DNA of 64,000 nt from Candidatus Woesearchaeota archaeon (GTDB lineage Archaea; Nanobdellota; Nanobdellia; Woesearchaeales; ARS49): contig JACQNC010000014.1 of the NCBI GenBank assembly GCA_016203225.1, positions 91,715-155,714 on the forward strand, read 5' to 3'. The notes below the pieces were generated by a model. The model did not search any database and was not told where the DNA came from. It worked only from the letters and a program-made list of their open reading frames with translations. Made by a program: the position numbers and the translations under genes. Of this stretch, positions 44,845 to 60,817 are shown piece after piece (positions within the stretch are counted from its first letter, which is position 1; the number at the start of each line of letters is the position of its first letter).

Positions 44845-45037
44845 AGACCAAAGCTTTTAAATCCGCATTCTTAAACGAATCAAAAGTACTTCAAGGGCCT
44901 GTAGCATACGAGCCGTGCCTCCGAATCTCGGCTGTCGCTGCAGTCCCATTCGCTACGCTCTTGGGCCTGTAGCATAACTTGGATAGTGCGGTGGGCTTCG
45001 GACCCATTGATCGGGGTTCAAATCCTCGCAGGCCCGC

Positions 45038-46245: not shown

Positions 46246-46317
46246 GGGCCCGTGGTCTAGCGGTATGACGTCTCGTTGACGTCGAGAAGGTCGCCAGTTC
46301 GAATCTGGCCGGGCCCA
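46246..46317 (+). tRNA. tRNA-Val (anticodon GAC)
   Basis: 7-bp acceptor GGGCCCG/CGGGCCC, anticodon stem TCTCG/CGAGA with loop TTGACGT, T-arm GCCAG-TTCGAAT-CTGGC, discriminator A. TATA-like TCTTTTTAAATGG about 30 nt upstream. Confidence 0.85.
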
Positions 46318-46373
46318 CTCTTTTTTCCTCAGAATGCACAAAACATAAAAACAGGAAGTTACTTTTAAACGTC

Positions 46374-53242: not shown

Positions 53243-55162
53243 ATGAACGTAGGACAAACAGGTCAAACGCTGGACGCGATCATCAAGGACGAGCCACAGC
53301 TCGTGCTAAAGAACAACATAGCGCGCGCGTGGAAGCACGCGATCGCGAAGGGCGGTTTCGGCACGCTGCTGCTCGCGAGGTTCGACAACGTCTTCGCATT
53401 CGGCGCAGAATTGATCAATCAGGGAGAGGCAGACCCGGCGATCCTTGGGCTTGAAGGGATCCCGTATTCTCCCCGTCCCGAGAACGGTCAAGGCTGGCTT
53501 CCGACGCCCATAGAGGATCCTCAAGTAAGAAAACGCGTCATAAAGGCAGGCCAAGACAGCTGGACAGCATACCAGAACGCACGCGCCCAGAAGGCGCCAG
53601 ACCAGGGACCGACCATCGACCGCGGCGACGTCATAATGCAGTACTGTGACTTTCTCAGACAGATGGATATCGAGCTAACGCAAAGCCCGCTCCTCGCGGT
53701 AAAAGTGCTCATCCCTCCAACCGGCAAGAACGCGGATGAAGAGCGCGTCTTCAGGAGCGAGGTCGAGCGCAAGTTCATCGACGAGTACTTCATGCTCCGC
53801 AGGCTGAAACACCCGAACATCGTCAGAACGCATGGACTCATCGAGGACCCGAAGTACGGCTGGACGCTTTACATGGACTACATAGACGGCCTGACCCTGG
53901 AGGACTATATCATTTCCCAAGAAGACAAGCGTCTACCTGCGCCTGTCGCGTTGAAGATCGTCGAGCGCGTCGCGGACGCGGTGAAGTACTGCCACGCGAA
54001 CGGCATCATCCATCGCGACATCAAACCGGCGAACGTCCTCATCAAGATCGACGGGGTCGAGGCAGATGGCACGCCCAAACTCATCCCGTACCTGTGCGAT
54101 TTCGGCATCAGCAAGAACGTCGACAGCTCGCAGACGACAATCATCAATCTTGGAAGCCCGCATCACGTGTCTCCCGAACAGGCGTGCGGCAACCCGGTGA
54201 CGTTCGCGTCCGACGTCTACCAGCTCGGTTCGCTGCTTTTCGAGATGGTCACGGGCAAAGGCGCATACGAAGGGCTCAGTATCGACGCCACGCTCACCCT
54301 TCTGCGCAACCCGACGATCGATCATCCCACTGTGGTGAGGGATTACCTTCCGAACCTCTCCGAACGCGTCAAGGACCTAATCGAGGTCGCCAGACGCAAG
54401 GATCCCGAGAAGCGTTGGATAATGGACAAGTTCATCTCCGAAGCGCGCTACATCATCGAGAAGGGACTCTATGACGAAACGCCACGCCGAAGCCCCACGC
54501 GGACAGAGCTAATCGAACTCTGGAAAGTCGTCGACCTCCGAAGGGCCGAACTCGAGACAAAGATCCAATTCATCCGTTTCGAGGAGGACATCGATAAGGC
54601 CAAGGAACTGTACAAGGCGGGCGATTTCATAGAATTCGAGATGAAAGTCACATCGTTCGCGGCGCAGCTCGCTGAGCGCCCCCAACGGTACACCAAGTTG
54701 AAGGAGGAGCTCACGCGCCTCCTGCTCGAAGTCGCAGACAACAGATTGAAGGCGAAGGAATACACCCAGGTCGGCACCGCGCTCACATACGTAACGAAAT
54801 GCATCGACGGACTCAAGAACGTCGATACCAAGGTCTACGGGGAGGAGTGCCAGAAACTCTCGGTGCAATTCGGGCCGCACTCGCTGTTCGTCAGCAACTT
54901 CAGCAATGTCGCCGATTCCCTGAAGAGCGTAGAGAAAGGCATCAAGGATGTCTACACTCTCCGAACCATGAACAAACCCTTCAGCGACAAGCTCAGCTCG
55001 CTCGAACTCCAACTGACAGGCGTGCGCGGCGTCTGGACGAACACGCCGCGTGAGAGCATCGGTTCCGCCTATGAGCGCATGGGACAACAGATCACCGACA
55101 TCGAGGACGCGTTGACAGATCTCAAACGCGAGACGCGCATCGACCGGTCATCAGGACAATAA
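53243..55162 (+). CDS. Hanks-type Ser/Thr protein kinase with N- and C-terminal extra domains
   Basis: HRDIKPANVL, DFGISK, SPE motif. C-terminal coiled-coil region. Confidence 0.85.
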   Translation: MNVGQTGQTLDAIIKDEPQLVLKNNIARAWKHAIAKGGFGTLLLARFDNVFAFGAELINQGEADPAILGLEGIPYSPRPENGQGWLPTPIEDPQVRKRVIKAGQDSWTAYQNARAQKAPDQGPTIDRGDVIMQYCDFLRQMDIELTQSPLLAVKVLIPPTGKNADEERVFRSEVERKFIDEYFMLRRLKHPNIVRTHGLIEDPKYGWTLYMDYIDGLTLEDYIISQEDKRLPAPVALKIVERVADAVKYCHANGIIHRDIKPANVLIKIDGVEADGTPKLIPYLCDFGISKNVDSSQTTIINLGSPHHVSPEQACGNPVTFASDVYQLGSLLFEMVTGKGAYEGLSIDATLTLLRNPTIDHPTVVRDYLPNLSERVKDLIEVARRKDPEKRWIMDKFISEARYIIEKGLYDETPRRSPTRTELIELWKVVDLRRAELETKIQFIRFEEDIDKAKELYKAGDFIEFEMKVTSFAAQLAERPQRYTKLKEELTRLLLEVADNRLKAKEYTQVGTALTYVTKCIDGLKNVDTKVYGEECQKLSVQFGPHSLFVSNFSNVADSLKSVEKGIKDVYTLRTMNKPFSDKLSSLELQLTGVRGVWTNTPRESIGSAYERMGQQITDIEDALTDLKRETRIDRSSGQ

Positions 55163-56545: not shown

Positions 56546-56857
56546 TTACTTCCATATTTTCTTTTCGAAATCTCTTATCTTATTATCTTCGAACTCAAGT
56601 CCTTCGCTTTCTAACAATGTCTTCTTGCGTTGAAGCTCTTTCCCCGCAGTCTTCCCCATGAATCCCCCTAAATAACCATCAGAAGCGACGACGCGGTGGC
56701 ACGGCACTTCAGGTGCGTACGGGTTGCAGCGCAGCGCCTGGCCCACAGCCCTAGGGCTGCTCTGGAGCGCCTTTGCCAGTAGCAGGTACGTCGATACCTT
56801 TCCCTGCGGTATCATCCTGCACAGGCGGTACACGTTGTTCTGGAACGGTGTTGGCAT
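56546..56857 (-). CDS. ogt: Methylated-DNA-protein-cysteine methyltransferase (short MGMT domain)
   Basis: VPCHRVV active-site motif, helix-turn-helix region. Confidence 0.7.
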   Translation of the reverse strand: MPTPFQNNVYRLCRMIPQGKVSTYLLLAKALQSSPRAVGQALRCNPYAPEVPCHRVVASDGYLGGFMGKTAGKELQRKKTLLESEGLEFEDNKIRDFEKKIWK

Positions 56858-57938
56858 AGCGTGATTCGAGCGCGCCGATATGCTGCTCGATGAATGCCTC
56901 TAGCTCAAGGTGCGTCTTCAGTTCGCGGAAGTTCTGCGGACCATCAATCACGGGTTCCCTCACGTCTGGCCACTGCAGGCGGTGTGCCTGCACTCTTGCC
57001 GCCTTTTTGTCGTACTTGGTGTGGAGCGCCTGTTCGGCAAGCACGATGACCTCTTTAGATGCATTGCCGAACACAACGGACTGGCGTTGCGCACGCTCGA
57101 TCACAATGTCGAACATCCTCGTGAACGCCACAGGATCGATCTCCTGGACATCGGTGAAATCCAGCACGATATGCTCGGCCTTCGCGAGGTGGCTTGCTTG
57201 GATCAGCCGGGAATTGAACGTGATTACATCCTCGGGCTTGGCAAGACCCTCGATCACAACTGTCGGCTCGTCCTTTATTCGGTAGACTGGAAGCTTGAAC
57301 AGGTTTGCCACGTAGTTCACCGCAGAGAGAACCCAAGTGAGGTGCAGCTTCTTCATCCGTTCCTCGACAGGCATCGCGAGCGTGATGAGCGCGCCCGCAT
57401 AATCAAGACCATAACTGGTAGGATGCTTATAGAGATAGACATCGTCCTGGAACACGACCCCTGTTCCGTCTTTTTTCCTGAGCGGAATCGCGGAGTTGAT
57501 GATGAGCTTCTCGAGCGGCGACTGCCTGAAATCCGCGATAATCTTGCGCACGTTCGCTTCCTTGCCCTCGGGCGAAATCAGGTGGAGGTCATGAAGATCC
57601 TCACGGAACCTCGTCACCCTACGCTGGACCACGGCGACATCGCCCTCCTGCTCAGCGATGATGGCTATGCGGTTCGCCATCGGCCGGAGCGCGTCCACGT
57701 AGAGATGCGATGACAGGTATTCCCGGAAATGCTTCCGGGGTGCCACGAGCTCCTTCGGATCGTAACCAGTGATGCTCGTGATTCCTGGGCTCGCGTAGGC
57801 GATCTCGGACTGGCTGTCAAGGATTATGAACGGGTACCGGAACGGCTTACGGTTACTATAGTGGTCGAGGGCCTGATCCTTAATGAAGCTCACGCCCTGC
57901 GCTCTGCGCCATTCGGGATCAAGATCAGGATTTGTCAA
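56751..57938 (-). CDS. PAS-STAS domain protein. Its 3' end overlaps ogt by at least about 90 nt, and by about 107 nt as annotated.
   Basis: PAS-like segment (ITGYDPKEL). STAS-like C-terminal domain (LDFTDVQEIDPVAFTRMFDIV). Confidence 0.5.
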   Translation of the reverse strand: MTNPDLDPEWRRAQGVSFIKDQALDHYSNRKPFRYPFIILDSQSEIAYASPGITSITGYDPKELVAPRKHFREYLSSHLYVDALRPMANRIAIIAEQEGDVAVVQRRVTRFREDLHDLHLISPEGKEANVRKIIADFRQSPLEKLIINSAIPLRKKDGTGVVFQDDVYLYKHPTSYGLDYAGALITLAMPVEERMKKLHLTWVLSAVNYVANLFKLPVYRIKDEPTVVIEGLAKPEDVITFNSRLIQASHLAKAEHIVLDFTDVQEIDPVAFTRMFDIVIERAQRQSVVFGNASKEVIVLAEQALHTKYDKKAARVQAHRLQWPDVREPVIDGPQNFRELKTHLELEAFIEQHIGALESRYANTVPEQRVPPVQDDTAGKGIDVPATGKGAPEQP

Positions 57939-59103
57939 TCGTCTTCACCACTGCATTGAATGTGGTATCTGACGGTTTCTGTTTATAAGCTTTCGCCGCC
58001 TCGATTACGTCCTTGTCCTTGATCCTCATCCCTTTCTTCGTCAACACGTCGCGCCAGACCATCAGGAACTGGCAGAGTTGCGTGACGTTATGGGCTTTCT
58101 TGCTCTGATGCGTGCGTTCCCAGTCGATCAGGACGACCTTGTTTTTCGCGACGATGGCGTTCTTCAACGGGCGGTGCATCTCTTCCTTCGCGACTCCGAG
58201 CTTGTCCAACACGAACCCTTGATGCAGCAAGTCCCTGAGCAACGGCTTGATTTGGGCCTTCCTCGCTTTCGGCAGCCAGTCCTTCAGGAAAACCCCTTCG
58301 ACAAATTCGTACACGACAAGATCGGGCTTCGCCATGAGCAGTTTCGGGCCGAGCCCGTGCTTGTTGACTAGCTCGAGCGTCCTGCCCTCGTTCCTGACGC
58401 GGCCCTCGGCTTCACTGGTGGGCTTCTTGATCTTTATCGCGACCTTTCTGCCGTTGTGCATCGCCGTGAATATTACACCGCGCTGGCCTTCATCAAGGTA
58501 ATGGATGTCCGAGAACCCCATCGGCTCGAGTTTCTGCGCAGTCTCGTTCTTGGCCAATTGATAGATGAACAATTCCTCGAAGAACTGCCTGCTCGACGCC
58601 AACTGTTTGAACTCGAAACCGTTGAGCTTGATCAATTCCTCCACCTTGTGACGGTTCGTGAGGTTCGAGAAAAGCAAAAGGATAGAACCTCCTGTCTTCA
58701 GATGATGCGGCGCGTCCGCGAGGAAACGCTCCACGACCTCGTATCCTTTCTTGCCTCCGATGAGCGCCATGTCCGGCTTGTTCTTGTCAGCCGGAAGGTA
58801 TGGCGGGTTGAAGATGATAGTGTCGAACTGCGTGCCTTTGAGCTTGCCTTTCTTGAACACGGCGAAGAGATCCGAGACGTAGCATTCGAGCTTGCGTTTC
58901 TTGATCGTCCGCTTGCAGTGCTTGACTGCAGCGGGATTCTTGTCGACAGCGATGACGCGCTCGACCTGTCTCAATTCCAGCGCAGCCTCTGCCTGGATGC
59001 CCGAGCCGGTGCCCATATCCAACACGACACCTTTCGCGTTCTTCCGGACCTGGTCCGAGAGCAACAAAGAATCCTCACGCGGCTCGTAGATGCTCTTTTT
59101 CAC
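57925..59103 (-). CDS. Fusion of Mtq2/HemK-like glutamine-N5 methyltransferase with an atypical Bud32/RIO/Kdo-kinase-like domain
   Basis: N-terminal motifs YEPREDSLLL, DMGTGSG, NPPY. The C-terminal kinase-like fold has VAIK and IDWE, but the catalytic loop reads HRPLKN and lacks the canonical Asp. Confidence 0.65.
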   Translation of the reverse strand: MKKSIYEPREDSLLLSDQVRKNAKGVVLDMGTGSGIQAEAALELRQVERVIAVDKNPAAVKHCKRTIKKRKLECYVSDLFAVFKKGKLKGTQFDTIIFNPPYLPADKNKPDMALIGGKKGYEVVERFLADAPHHLKTGGSILLLFSNLTNRHKVEELIKLNGFEFKQLASSRQFFEELFIYQLAKNETAQKLEPMGFSDIHYLDEGQRGVIFTAMHNGRKVAIKIKKPTSEAEGRVRNEGRTLELVNKHGLGPKLLMAKPDLVVYEFVEGVFLKDWLPKARKAQIKPLLRDLLHQGFVLDKLGVAKEEMHRPLKNAIVAKNKVVLIDWERTHQSKKAHNVTQLCQFLMVWRDVLTKKGMRIKDKDVIEAAKAYKQKPSDTTFNAVVKTIDKS

Positions 59104-59142
59104 GCGTTGGAATCAAGAGAATTCGTATTTAAAGGTTTGGAA

Positions 59143-59705: not shown

Positions 59706-59855
59706 TCACGAAAGAACACCCAAGCACTTCGTCTCCTTGTGTCCGCAGCCTTCGCACACCCAGTTGATGTACTTGGCGTTGCCTGATATGGAGGCGAAAT
59801 TCTTGATCATGCGCGCAGAACACCTAGGACAGCGCCCTTCCTTCTTCTCTTCCAT
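59706..59855 (-). CDS. Small zinc-ribbon protein (49 aa)
   Basis: TATA TTATATAG lies about 25 nt upstream of the ATG (leaderless). CPRC...CEGC. Confidence 0.4.
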   Translation of the reverse strand: MEEKKEGRCPRCSARMIKNFASISGNAKYINWVCEGCGHKETKCLGVLS

Positions 59856-60384
59856 GGCGTCCAAACGCCGCATCATTCTATATAAGCATTTTGTGTGTGC
59901 AGAATATGCAGTCACAAAGCATAAAAAGCGGGCCAGAAACTGCGGAGTCGTGCCCGGCTATAAGAGAAGAAGAGTCGAAAAAGAGTCCCCCGTAACCAGG
60001 GACCCAGATGGACGCACTTGGGCTGAGTTCCGACGCTACACCACCAAGACCCTCGCTGAAGCGCGGGCCTGGTTCGAGGTCGCAGGCTTCGACTACCGCG
60101 TCGTGCGCAAGGGCAAAGATCAAGCATTGTTTATCCTACGCGACCAACAGGACCAGGTCGCGAAGCGTTATGGCTGGGTGACGCTCATACAGGTCCTAGA
60201 CGCGGATGAGTCCGCTTCGATAAAGACCTGGCTCGACACGAAGAACATCGAATCACGACTCGTGCCCGGCCCGGATAACCGCGCGGCCGTTTGCGTGCAG
60301 CTGAAGGACCACGAGCGCGCAGCGCGCGAGTACAGCGCCGAACAACACGCTCAACGTTACCGGCAGAACGGACTCACGGGATAG
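59737..60384 (+). CDS. Hypothetical protein. The true start is probably well downstream of 59737, because the 5' part of the ORF runs through the TATA box.
   Basis: ORF with coding-like composition in its 3' two-thirds. Confidence 0.3.
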   Translation: MCPQPSHTQLMYLALPDMEAKFLIMRAEHLGQRPSFFSSMASKRRIILYKHFVCAEYAVTKHKKRARNCGVVPGYKRRRVEKESPVTRDPDGRTWAEFRRYTTKTLAEARAWFEVAGFDYRVVRKGKDQALFILRDQQDQVAKRYGWVTLIQVLDADESASIKTWLDTKNIESRLVPGPDNRAAVCVQLKDHERAAREYSAEQHAQRYRQNGLTG

Positions 60385-60817
60385 CGCGGAGGTATTCCTT
60401 CACGCGTTCGATTATGGTCTTCAGATAGAATTTCTCGATCTTCTCCTCGAACAAGTCAATCAGTTTCGCGTTCTCTGCGATACGGTACTGGTTACCGAGC
60501 TTCTCGACAAGATACAGGTCGCGCAGACGCTTCAATTGCCTTCGGATGTTCGACGGCGCTACACCGTGCACCTGCACCAAGGCTTTCTTCCTCGATTCCT
60601 TGACGCGCCTCTCGACCTCGACAGAGTCCAAAGACTCCTTTGATGCGATAAGCACGCCGAGGATGTCGACGATGACGTCGCGAGAATCGCCAGGCTGCAA
60701 CAGCCCGAGACTCAAGCAGATTTTCTTCATCAAATCGCGTCCGTGAAGGTCGTACGGTTTCTCGTACTTGCGCAGCGTGAGCTCTGCAAGCGGCTGTTCG
60801 CGGGCGACCTTCGGCAT
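60374..60817 (-). CDS. Hypothetical (possible winged-helix) protein
   Basis: 147-aa basic protein. Confidence 0.4.
   Translation of the reverse strand: MPKVAREQPLAELTLRKYEKPYDLHGRDLMKKICLSLGLLQPGDSRDVIVDILGVLIASKESLDSVEVERRVKESRKKALVQVHGVAPSNIRRQLKRLRDLYLVEKLGNQYRIAENAKLIDLFEEKIEKFYLKTIIERVKEYLRAIP

Follow-up and report, generated by a model that had tools for sequence, protein, structure and literature searches.

A single open reading frame on the minus strand of the 64-kb archaeal window (the whole stretch of DNA that was analysed) appears to join a methyltransferase to a protein-kinase-like fold with an unusual catalytic loop, which raises the questions of whether the fusion is real, what the kinase-like half is and what the two halves may do together. 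The gene occupies 57925..59103 (minus strand), with a GTG start at 59103 and a TGA stop at 57925-57927, and its 392 codons read from the sequence contain zero internal stops. The product is 100 % identical to MBI4145640.1, to which NCBI gives merely the label "methyltransferase [Candidatus Woesearchaeota archaeon]". The first-pass annotation had described one uninterrupted gene of 392 aa that joins a methyltransferase to a kinase-like fold, and this description holds. All of the motifs that it had quoted are present, namely YEPREDSLLL (residues 6-15), DMGTGSG (29-35), NPPY (99-102) and KVAIK (with Lys224), followed in the C-terminal half by HRPLKN (310-315) and IDWE (326-329). More than 120 full-length homologues with 44-89 % identity were found, and the fusion protein was matched in 80 species-representative genomes, which indicates that the gene is real and conserved rather than a chance ORF or the product of a frameshift. 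The idea that an error in sequencing or assembly merged two separate genes, or that the frame arose by chance, has a negligible probability: overlapping separate methyltransferase and kinase genes do occur on some contigs, but the frame is continuous here, and 80 independent assemblies and 90 representative clusters share the fused form with a conserved linker. The AlphaFold2 model of the whole protein has a pLDDT of 91.4 and a pTM of 0.81. A TATA-box-like archaeal element read directly from the DNA, TTTAAATA (59126..59133, minus strand), lies 22 nt 5´ of the GTG start. Its agreement with the archaeal TATA consensus suggests that the fusion gene may have a promoter to itself and yield a leaderless transcript.

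The N-terminal domain (residues 1-185; 58549..59103, minus strand) is an N5-glutamine methyltransferase domain of the Mtq2/HemK2 type according to profile and structure matches, as had been proposed. Mtq2/HemK2/N6AMT1 is the glutamine-N5 methyltransferase of the GGQ motif of eRF1/aRF1 and has Trm112 as its partner. The domain scores 127.1 bits against TIGR00537 (hemK_rel_arch), above the cut-off of 87, and 153.9 bits against the narrower equivalog NF011529, slightly below the cut-off of 162. Pfam MTS matches it with an E-value of 8.8e-16, and a sequence search of the PDB finds N6AMT1/HEMK2 (E 1.8e-10). In Foldseek comparisons, HEMK2 of the HEMK2-TRMT112 complex (6ped_A) and Mtq2 (3q87_B) give TM-scores of 0.79 and 0.78, respectively. 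Conservation was scored across 27 homologues, all of them fusion proteins, with identities of only 45-50 %. D29 and G33 of the SAM-binding motif I (D29-M-G-T-G-S-G35) do not vary, and conservation reaches 90 % or more at G31, T32, S34 and G35. The N-terminal YEPxEDS motif aligns with VYEPAEDTFLL of human N6AMT1, and its YxPxxDS residues are invariant. The catalytic motif IV NPPY (N99-Y102; 58798..58809, minus strand), read directly, is also invariant; H. volcanii Mtq2 cannot function without the Tyr of NPPY (PMC6144793). The Rossmann methyltransferase fold, DxGxGxG, NPPY and the N-terminal YEPxEDS are all shared with Mtq2/HemK2/N6AMT1 (KMT9), whereas the 200-aa C-terminal kinase domain of the fusion protein sets it apart. 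Pfam recognised no Trm112 near the fusion gene. A small conserved Zn-ribbon ORF upstream (59706-59915, minus strand) was considered as Trm112 and rejected, its Pfam matches being generic zinc-finger ones and all sub-threshold.

The C-terminal ~200 aa fold like a protein kinase and have a non-canonical catalytic loop, which agrees with the first-pass annotation; the Bud32/RIO-like identity that it had given to this fold did not survive comparison. By sequence, profile-profile comparison and predicted structure, residues ~186-392 (57928..58548, minus strand) belong to the ArkI/Ark1 family of RNA-kinase-like domains (COG2112, "AQ578"). The best phmmer matches in the PDB are G. acetivorans Ark1 (8yv4/8yv5, E 1.5e-6) and TkArkI (7vnx, E 5e-6). 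Alignment to ArkI with hhalign gives 99.8 % and an E-value of 2.5e-30 over 181 columns, which cover ArkI residues 14-205 of 216. The top Foldseek match is 7vnx (E 6.7e-11, TM 0.72), and 8yv4/8yv5 reach TM 0.81-0.82; RIO and PRPK structures give 0.46-0.67, with high rmsd for RIO1/RIO2. No Pfam or NCBIfam family matches the kinase domain above threshold, Pfam RIO1 included. The Bud32/PRPK profiles score 19-21 bits (NF011463, cut-off 188) and 21 bits (NF011461, cut-off 372). Genuine ArkI proteins yield equally weak Bud32 matches, which is explained by Bud32 and RIO being the nearest families that possess profile models. A canonical active Bud32 with an intact Asp does not fit the domain either, as the loop KEEMHRPLKN contains no Asp and does not match HxD...N. 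A crude regex search of the window ORFs detected no Kae1 signature, and no Kae1-like Peptidase_M22 is listed among the called genes of the related loci examined. The domain shares with Bud32/PRPK (KEOPS) and RIO a place in the superfamily of minimal ePK-like kinases without an activation segment; unlike Bud32/PRPK, it has no HxD catalytic Asp and no Kae1 nearby, and its Foldseek TM to that family is below its TM to ArkI.

ArkI is an RNA kinase that 2´-phosphorylates U47 of archaeal tRNA (PMC9095486). The domain described here resembles ArkI/Ark1 in its small two-lobed ePK-like fold, in the absence of both HRD and DFG, and in the possession of the β3 Lys, the αC Glu, the D-F/W-E metal loop, the N-x-T of subdomain IX and a Y-K motif carried by the long final helix. 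In contrast to this kinase domain, which is fused to a methyltransferase, the enzymes characterised so far stand alone and are 175-216 aa long. Identity to TkArkI (TK2051) is merely ~22-25 %, and H130 and Q132 of that enzyme are replaced by K306 and E308. G. acetivorans Ark1 (8yv4/8yv5) was crystallised with ATP and deposited in the PDB as an "RNA kinase"; a literature search found no paper for these entries.

The residues known to matter in TkArkI are largely retained. In phmmer and hhalign alignments, the β3 Lys224 of VAIK (58432..58434, minus strand) corresponds to TkArkI K51, and the metal-binding D327-W-E329 (58117..58125, minus strand) corresponds to the ArkI D-F-E that contains TkArkI D149. 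The K51A mutation markedly reduces and D149A abolishes the activity of TkArkI (PMC9095486). K224, E239, D327 and E329 are invariant in the 27 fusion proteins, and D-[FWLY]-E is found in 148 of 150 representative homologues. Subdomain IX (N339-V-T341-Q) and helix α7 (Y373-K-Q) are also present, with N339, Q342 and Y373 invariant in the 27 homologues. The TkArkI residues K51, E65, D149, N160, T162 and the Tyr of YKR, the mutation of any of which lowers or abolishes activity (PMC9095486), map to the conserved K224, E239, D327, N339, T341 and Y373. Retention was scored for five of the seven mapped TkArkI residues whose mutation has such an effect. The catalytic loop K306-E-E-M-H-R-P-L-K-N315 (58159..58188, minus strand), which includes HRPLKN, aligns with KEEMNHPDRH of G. 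acetivorans Ark1 and with HGQIQG-GKH of TkArkI. K306, E308 and M309 of this loop are invariant in the 27 homologues; K314 matches TkArkI K137, yet it is Thr in 2 of the 27. The odd loop would then be a normal "KEEM" variant of the ArkI/Ark1 family, with the invariant Glu308 placed at the position of the HRD Asp or the HGQ Gln.

These residues bear directly on the earlier proposal of a probable pseudokinase, under which a Bud32/RIO-like domain would have lost catalysis and would merely bind or act as a scaffold; it could stand in for Trm112 and stabilise Mtq2, or tether Mtq2 to the tRNA-like aRF1. Many Mtq2 orthologues require a partner for solubility (PMC6144793), and the pTM of 0.81 suggests that the two domains have a fixed arrangement. 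The HRD Asp is missing, HRPLKN resembles HRDLK..N with the Asp changed to Pro, K314 is not invariant, and weak Bud32 matches are obtained with E-values of about 2e-4 to 6e-4. However, those Bud32 scores are ~10 % of the cut-offs and are reproduced by genuine ArkI. TkArkI is active although HGQ/DFE replaces HRD/DFG (PMC9095486), and G. acetivorans Ark1, crystallised with ATP, has the same K-E-E-M loop as the fusion protein. The GxRG loop, K224, E239, D327, E329, N339/T341 and Y373 show little or no variation, whereas the loss of such ATP-, metal- and ArkI-specific residues would be expected in a pseudokinase. Since lack of the HRD Asp characterises a family with an experimentally active RNA kinase, and none of the 27 homologues departs from the ATP/metal residues, the domain is unlikely to be a pseudokinase, and we regard a catalytically dead Bud32/RIO-like scaffold as highly doubtful. 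The alternative label offered by the first-pass annotation, an unconventional kinase, is the correct one.

The domain identities, the conservation of the catalytic residues, the distribution and the gene order are established. The fusion protein is fairly probably a bifunctional translation-modifying enzyme composed of an Mtq2/HemK2 methyltransferase and a catalytically competent ArkI/Ark1-family kinase, for which we infer the substrates and activities. The methyltransferase domain would act, in a SAM-dependent manner, on the Gln of the GGQ motif in the release factor aRF1. The kinase domain would carry out the ATP-dependent 2´-O-phosphorylation of U47 in tRNAs with a 5-nt variable loop that contains U47-C48, which is the motif described for Up47 (PMC10622864). 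Transcription would start from a TATA-like promoter of the gene's own, and in many relatives a mini-MGMT gene comes directly after the fusion gene. The V-loop of tRNA-Val(GAC) at 46246-46318 has 5 nt, AGGUC, and thus U47-C48; two related loci (L021 and L023) share this loop with the window. An Rfam scan of the 64-kb window detected three tRNAs and nothing else.

The fusion is not confined to this genome. It was found in 80 or more genomes at species level, almost all with a Woesearchaeota or Nanoarchaeota label, and is carried by all 80 of the best genome loci. Complete or near-complete genomes are among the carriers (OY970338.1, JBAYIU010000001.1 and CAZJXP010000001.1). A search for the same fusion elsewhere, which the first-pass annotation had called for, recovered it in these 80 species-representative genomes and in 90 of the 150 closest representative clusters of the kinase domain; the fused form is the majority form of this ArkI-like kinase subfamily in Woesearchaeota. 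In loci L084 and L086 the methyltransferase and the kinase are encoded by overlapping adjacent genes, and stand-alone kinase homologues with neither mtq2 nor ogt as a neighbour are found in loci L081 and L089. The fusion may have arisen from two adjacent overlapping genes, which are still separate on some related contigs, and the fused form would later have become dominant in Woesearchaeota/Nanoarchaeota. The Mtq2 and mini-MGMT context is absent from the arkI loci of Thermococcus and Geoglobus, as neither an arkI-mtq2 nor an arkI-ogt neighbourhood is present in G. acetivorans or T. gorgonarius. The architecture had been called non-standard, and no description of an Mtq2-kinase joining was found in the literature. 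The literature search likewise found no paper that pairs Up47/ArkI with DPANN, Woesearchaeota or Mtq2, and the archaeal Trm112/Mtq2 paper does not mention a kinase fusion (PMC6144793).

The lineage also differs from the characterised ArkI/Ark1 enzymes in being sampled mainly from non-thermal habitats, and the groundwater and marine titles of the sequence records indicate that the organisms bearing the fusion are probably mostly mesophiles. This probable mesophily sits against the Up47 kinase reading, since Up47 has been described mainly as a thermostabiliser (PMC9095486); mesophiles with both ArkI and Up47 exist.

The gene chain that had been reported downstream on the minus strand is present, and comprises a 395-aa ORF (56751..57938) followed by a short MGMT (ogt) gene (56546..56857). 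The latter encodes a mini-MGMT of 103 aa, which consists of the Ogt C-terminal domain alone with an intact PCHRV and is recognised by Pfam DNA_binding_1 (E 7.8e-26) and TIGR00589 (71.9 bits). It retains the active-site Tyr, the Arg finger, the Asn, PCHRV and the Glu of Ogt/MGMT O6-alkylguanine-DNA alkyltransferases, and it is unlike them in its reduction to the C-terminal domain of ~100 aa and in its repeated adjacency or fusion to an ArkI-like kinase. In 36 of 77 related loci the mini-MGMT lies 3´ of the kinase on the same strand, at a distance of at most 150 nt in 18, and it also adjoins stand-alone kinases. Four clusters have MGMT fused to the kinase, and in each of them the domains run methyltransferase, kinase, MGMT. 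No description of a kinase-MGMT link was found in the literature search. The recurrent link to MGMT is left unaccounted for by the bifunctional-enzyme explanation. The 395-aa ORF lies outside the conserved set. The gene itself is there, but its PAS-STAS label rests on sub-threshold Pfam matches (PAS_9, E 0.045; STAS, E 0.17). A relative was found in just one related locus (L002, 23 % identity), and in many other loci ogt comes straight after the fusion gene, so the ORF looks like a lineage-specific insertion.

The fixed gene order, combined with fusion points that vary, could also reflect a cassette whose components share a substrate. Here the Mtq2-like enzyme would not act, or not only act, on aRF1; together with the ArkI-like kinase and possibly the mini-MGMT it would target one nucleic acid in common, tRNA being the most plausible, and the kinase would be the RNA-binding hub that recruits to RNA both the methyltransferase and an alkyl-acceptor (dealkylating) domain. 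A milder version has the kinase domain take over from Trm112 as the obligate partner of Mtq2. NPPY enzymes also produce m2G and m6A, and fused proteins usually act in one pathway ("Rosetta stone" reasoning). The cluster P0157 carries an additional second methyltransferase domain, and the split methyltransferase/kinase pair in L086 is flanked by tRNA-modification genes. Against this, the methyltransferase scores above the archaeal HemK2/Mtq2 cut-off and has the Mtq2-type YEPxEDS motif, and its closest structures are Mtq2/HEMK2 rather than Trm11 or RsmC/D. Mtq2 has been reported from every archaeal phylum (PMC6144793), which implies that these small genomes need one, and phmmer found neither another Mtq2-like nor another ArkI-like gene among the ORFs of 50 aa or more in the 64-kb window. 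We consider the shared-substrate cassette quite improbable. If true, it would provide the first RNA-directed MGMT and a role for an Mtq2-family enzyme other than on release factors.

A further alternative accepts an active kinase and assigns it another substrate: a protein (aRF1, the neighbouring MGMT or ribosomal proteins), a different position in RNA, or DNA, with methylation and phosphorylation coupled on a target that is not tRNA. The fold is ePK-like, the loop reads K-E-E where TkArkI has H-G-Q, and adjacency and fusion tie the subfamily to Mtq2 and MGMT, unlike arkI of Thermococcus and Geoglobus. The RNA-binding features of ArkI are nevertheless kept: subdomain IX has its N-x-T, and the long C-terminal helix bears the Y-K motif. 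The ~200-aa domain aligns to the ArkI core alone, without a peptide-binding subdomain VIII, and its nearest crystallised relative was deposited as an "RNA kinase". A substrate other than that of canonical ArkI is accordingly unlikely, and a bifunctional enzyme that modifies aRF1 and tRNA is the reading that we prefer.

The fusion protein is a new architecture built from known enzyme families and is of moderate interest as such. ArkI and 2´-phosphouridine were discovered as recently as 2022, and a large divergent branch of the ArkI family hides unannotated in proteins named just "methyltransferase". The description of its kinase half as a Bud32-like pseudokinase is likely a mis-annotation, which is corrected here. 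The branch is widespread in genomes labelled Woesearchaeota/Nanoarchaeota, many of them from groundwater and marine sites, which is an unexpected habitat for what has been described mainly as a tRNA-stabilising device of thermophiles. In these archaea the ArkI-like branch is joined physically to a putative release-factor methyltransferase and, in a recurring manner, to a miniature MGMT.

The 392-aa protein encoded on the minus strand at 57925-59103 is probably a bifunctional enzyme, in which Mtq2, with aRF1 as its target, and a catalytically active ArkI-type kinase, with tRNA U47 as its target, would have been fused from an operon pair. Both domains are from known families. Residues 1-185 form an Mtq2/HemK2-type methyltransferase domain, as indicated by profile, PDB and fold matches. 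This domain scores 127 bits with the NCBIfam model TIGR00537 (HemK2/MTQ2 family; cut-off 87) and matches Pfam MTS at E 8.8e-16, and in the PDB its closest matches by sequence are human N6AMT1/HEMK2 and E. cuniculi Mtq2. Across 27 aligned homologues, Tyr6, Pro8, Asp11 and Ser12, most positions of D29-x-G-x-G-x-G, and N99-P-P-Y102 show little or no variation. AlphaFold2 modelled the full-length protein with confidence (pLDDT 91.4, pTM 0.81), and in a Foldseek search against the PDB the methyltransferase half of the model matches HEMK2 and Mtq2 with TM 0.78-0.79. The score above cut-off, the PDB matches and the conserved motifs lead us to accept the Mtq2 identity proposed in the first-pass annotation, and direct reading found every motif quoted there in the ORF, where it had been placed. 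Haloferax Mtq2 methylates the GGQ Gln of aRF1, and its NPPY Tyr is essential (PMC6144793).

The C-terminal domain (residues about 186-392) is of the ArkI/Ark1 type, based on PDB, profile-profile and fold matches. It had been read as an atypical Bud32/RIO-like fold. A Pfam search of the domain gave no significant match, and NCBIfam returned Bud32 models alone, at 19-21 bits compared with cut-offs of 188-372. The PDB sequence search retrieved 8yv4/8yv5 ("putative Ser/Thr kinase" chains, E 1.5e-6) and 7vnx ("TkArkI", E 5e-6). Foldseek ranked 7vnx first in the PDB for the fusion model (E 6.7e-11, TM 0.72); the pair 8yv4/8yv5, one with ATP and one without, both entered as "G. acetivorans RNA kinase Ark1", reached TM 0.81-0.82, and RIO and PRPK/Bud32 ranked lower (TM 0.46-0.67). 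When the fusion family was compared, profile to profile, with aligned ArkI proteins from Thermococcales and Geoglobus, the match spanned ArkI residues 14-205 of 216 (99.8 % probability, E 2.5e-30). As a control, the genuine ArkI proteins P0283 and P0310 yielded equally weak, sub-threshold Bud32 matches, which places the Bud32 resemblance at the superfamily level. Bud32 thus appears to be simply the nearest family with a model, and the Bud32/RIO assignment was abandoned in favor of ArkI.

ArkI (TK2051; COG2112), from the atypical kinase family formerly called "AQ578", is an archaeal RNA kinase that forms 2´-phosphouridine at tRNA position 47. Subdomains VIII and X are absent from ArkI, subdomain IX contains a helix specific to it, and its long final helix bears a Y-K-R motif (PMC9095486). 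The present data show the identity of the two domains, the conservation of their residues and the distribution of the fusion; we infer the substrates and activities of both domains of the fusion from these characterised families. The weightiest rival, an active kinase with a substrate other than that of ArkI, is unlikely. In the window and in two related loci, tRNA-Val(GAC) (46246-46318 in the window) has a 5-nt variable loop, AGGUC, and thus U47-C48, the context in which Up47 has been reported (PMC10622864); in this tiny sample, with U47 being common, the loop would show only that a suitable ArkI substrate exists. By convention, the 4-nt variable loop (UGAU) of tRNA-Arg(TCG) (44963-45037, plus strand) has no position 47, so this tRNA would not be an ArkI substrate. 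The tRNA-Ala(CGC) of related loci carries C47-U48.

A third module accompanies the fusion. The mini-MGMT gene ogt (56546-56857, minus strand; 103 aa) encodes the active-site domain of Ogt/MGMT alone, with the Tyr, the Arg finger, the Asn, PCHRV and the Glu all intact. A same-strand MGMT lies 3´ of the fusion in 36 of the 77 related loci with room downstream (within 150 nt in 18). Stand-alone kinase genes in loci L082 and L087/L088 are followed, with a 4-nt overlap, by a 96-97-aa MGMT gene (2047-2337 in L082; 4678-4971 in L087), and four representative 50 %-identity clusters (P0159, P0160, P0209, P0245) carry MGMT at the kinase C-terminus. One of these clusters is present in two independent assemblies, where an overlapping Mtq2-like gene precedes it (L093). 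The fusion points vary, but the modules always come in the order methyltransferase, kinase, MGMT. A slightly less likely rival than a different kinase substrate is a shared-substrate cassette, with the methyltransferase and perhaps MGMT also working on tRNA. In G. acetivorans and T. gorgonarius, neither a methyltransferase nor an MGMT gene neighbours arkI, and the link accordingly appears restricted to the present lineage; our literature search found no account of a kinase-MGMT link.

Between the fusion gene and ogt, which it overlaps by 107 nt, lies a 395-aa ORF (56751-57938, minus strand) whose sole relative among the related loci compared is in L002 (23 % identity). This ORF has the appearance of a rapidly evolving insertion, specific to the lineage, that splits a conserved gene pair. 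The first-pass annotation called it PAS-STAS; the gene stands, and the PAS_9 (E 0.045) and STAS (E 0.17) matches are sub-threshold. On the other side, an TTTAAATA element at 59126-59133, 22 nt upstream of the fusion GTG, is a candidate archaeal TATA box with the spacing expected for a leaderless transcript. Further upstream on the same strand, a zinc-ribbon ORF (CxxC...CxxC, up to 69 aa; 59706-59915) is conserved in four related loci (L001, L002, L032 and L046; 50-87 % identity) and is therefore probably a real gene; Pfam gives it no support as Trm112, matching generic zinc fingers below threshold. It is overlapped by a 215-aa plus-strand ORF (59737-60384) for which a family search found no match. 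A 147-aa winged-helix-like protein with a weak ArsR/HTH_5 match follows (60374-60817, minus strand); in 27 of 80 loci its gene immediately precedes the fusion and separates the cassette from IleRS. IleRS is upstream in 18 of the 80, and a downstream TFB faces the cassette in 34. Just beyond TFB, a 639-aa Hanks-type Ser/Thr kinase (53243-55162, plus strand; Pkinase E 4e-38, HRD present) is a conventional ePK within a small DPANN-type genome, with a long coiled-coil-like C-terminal region and a relative in L001 (28 % identity).

The fusion is widespread. More than 120 full-length homologues (360-435 aa, at least 87 % query coverage) were found, and a one-genome-per-species scan confirmed 586 relatives. 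The best 80 of these, each matched via the kinase part, are titled Woesearchaeota, Nanoarchaeota or Nanoarchaeia, with some TPA bins titled "Methanosarcinales", and many are from metagenomes of groundwater, marine or spring origin. Many TPA bins with a Woesearchaeota-type locus, including L001, L002 and L008, bear the title 'uncultured Methanosarcinales archaeon', which is probably a mislabel because their fusion is 68-70 % and their TFB 97 % identical to those of the window. With the kinase domain as sole query, an exhaustive HMMER search gave 1041 clusters at E ≤ 1e-3; the best 150 comprise 90 methyltransferase-kinase fusions, 56 kinases alone (some fragments) and four kinase-MGMT fusions. 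P0157 (563 aa) adds a second methyltransferase domain (Methyltransf_11/25) after the kinase, and P0200, P0135 and P0152 have 50-110 aa N-terminal extensions ahead of the Mtq2-like domain. The architecture had been flagged as non-standard, and the literature searched describes neither it, nor its prevalence in these archaea, nor the recurrent MGMT association; databases label the protein "methyltransferase" alone.

The TkArkI residues mutated previously (PMC9095486) were mapped onto the fusion through the PDB-search and profile-profile alignments, and conservation was scored over 27 fusion proteins. Lys224 (TkArkI K51), Glu239 (E65), Asp327 (D149), Asn339 (N160) and Tyr373 (Y200) are invariant; the position of Thr341 (T162) holds Thr or Ser in most, and that of Lys314 (K137) holds Lys or Arg in 25 and Thr in two. 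Lys306 (H130) and Glu308 (Q132) are also invariant and differ from TkArkI, with Glu308 filling the HRD-Asp/HGQ-Gln position. Of 150 representative homologues, 148 keep D-[FWLY]-E and 139 keep N-x-[TS]-Q. It is improbable that the domain is a pseudokinase or a scaffold that might replace Trm112. The pseudokinase had been proposed from the HRPLKN catalytic loop; the string is present, but the loop (K-E-E-M-H-R-P-L-K-N) is nearly that of crystallised Geoglobus Ark1 (K-E-E-M-N-H-P-D-R-H) and typical of the ArkI family. Fusions that share only 45-50 % identity keep the ATP and metal residues invariant, which favors an active enzyme. An artefact is scarcely credible: the ORF runs from GTG to TGA with no unnoticed stop or frameshift. 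Its product matches NCBI MBI4145640.1 ("methyltransferase [Candidatus Woesearchaeota archaeon]", 174-kb contig) at 100 % identity.

Two contigs (L084 and L086) encode the methyltransferase and the kinase in separate genes with a 1-8 nt overlap, which suggests that an operon pair is either the ancestor of the fusion or what it decays into. In the bifunctional enzyme that we favor, two halves joined out of such a pair would serve aRF1 through the Mtq2 domain and tRNA U47 through the ArkI-type kinase.
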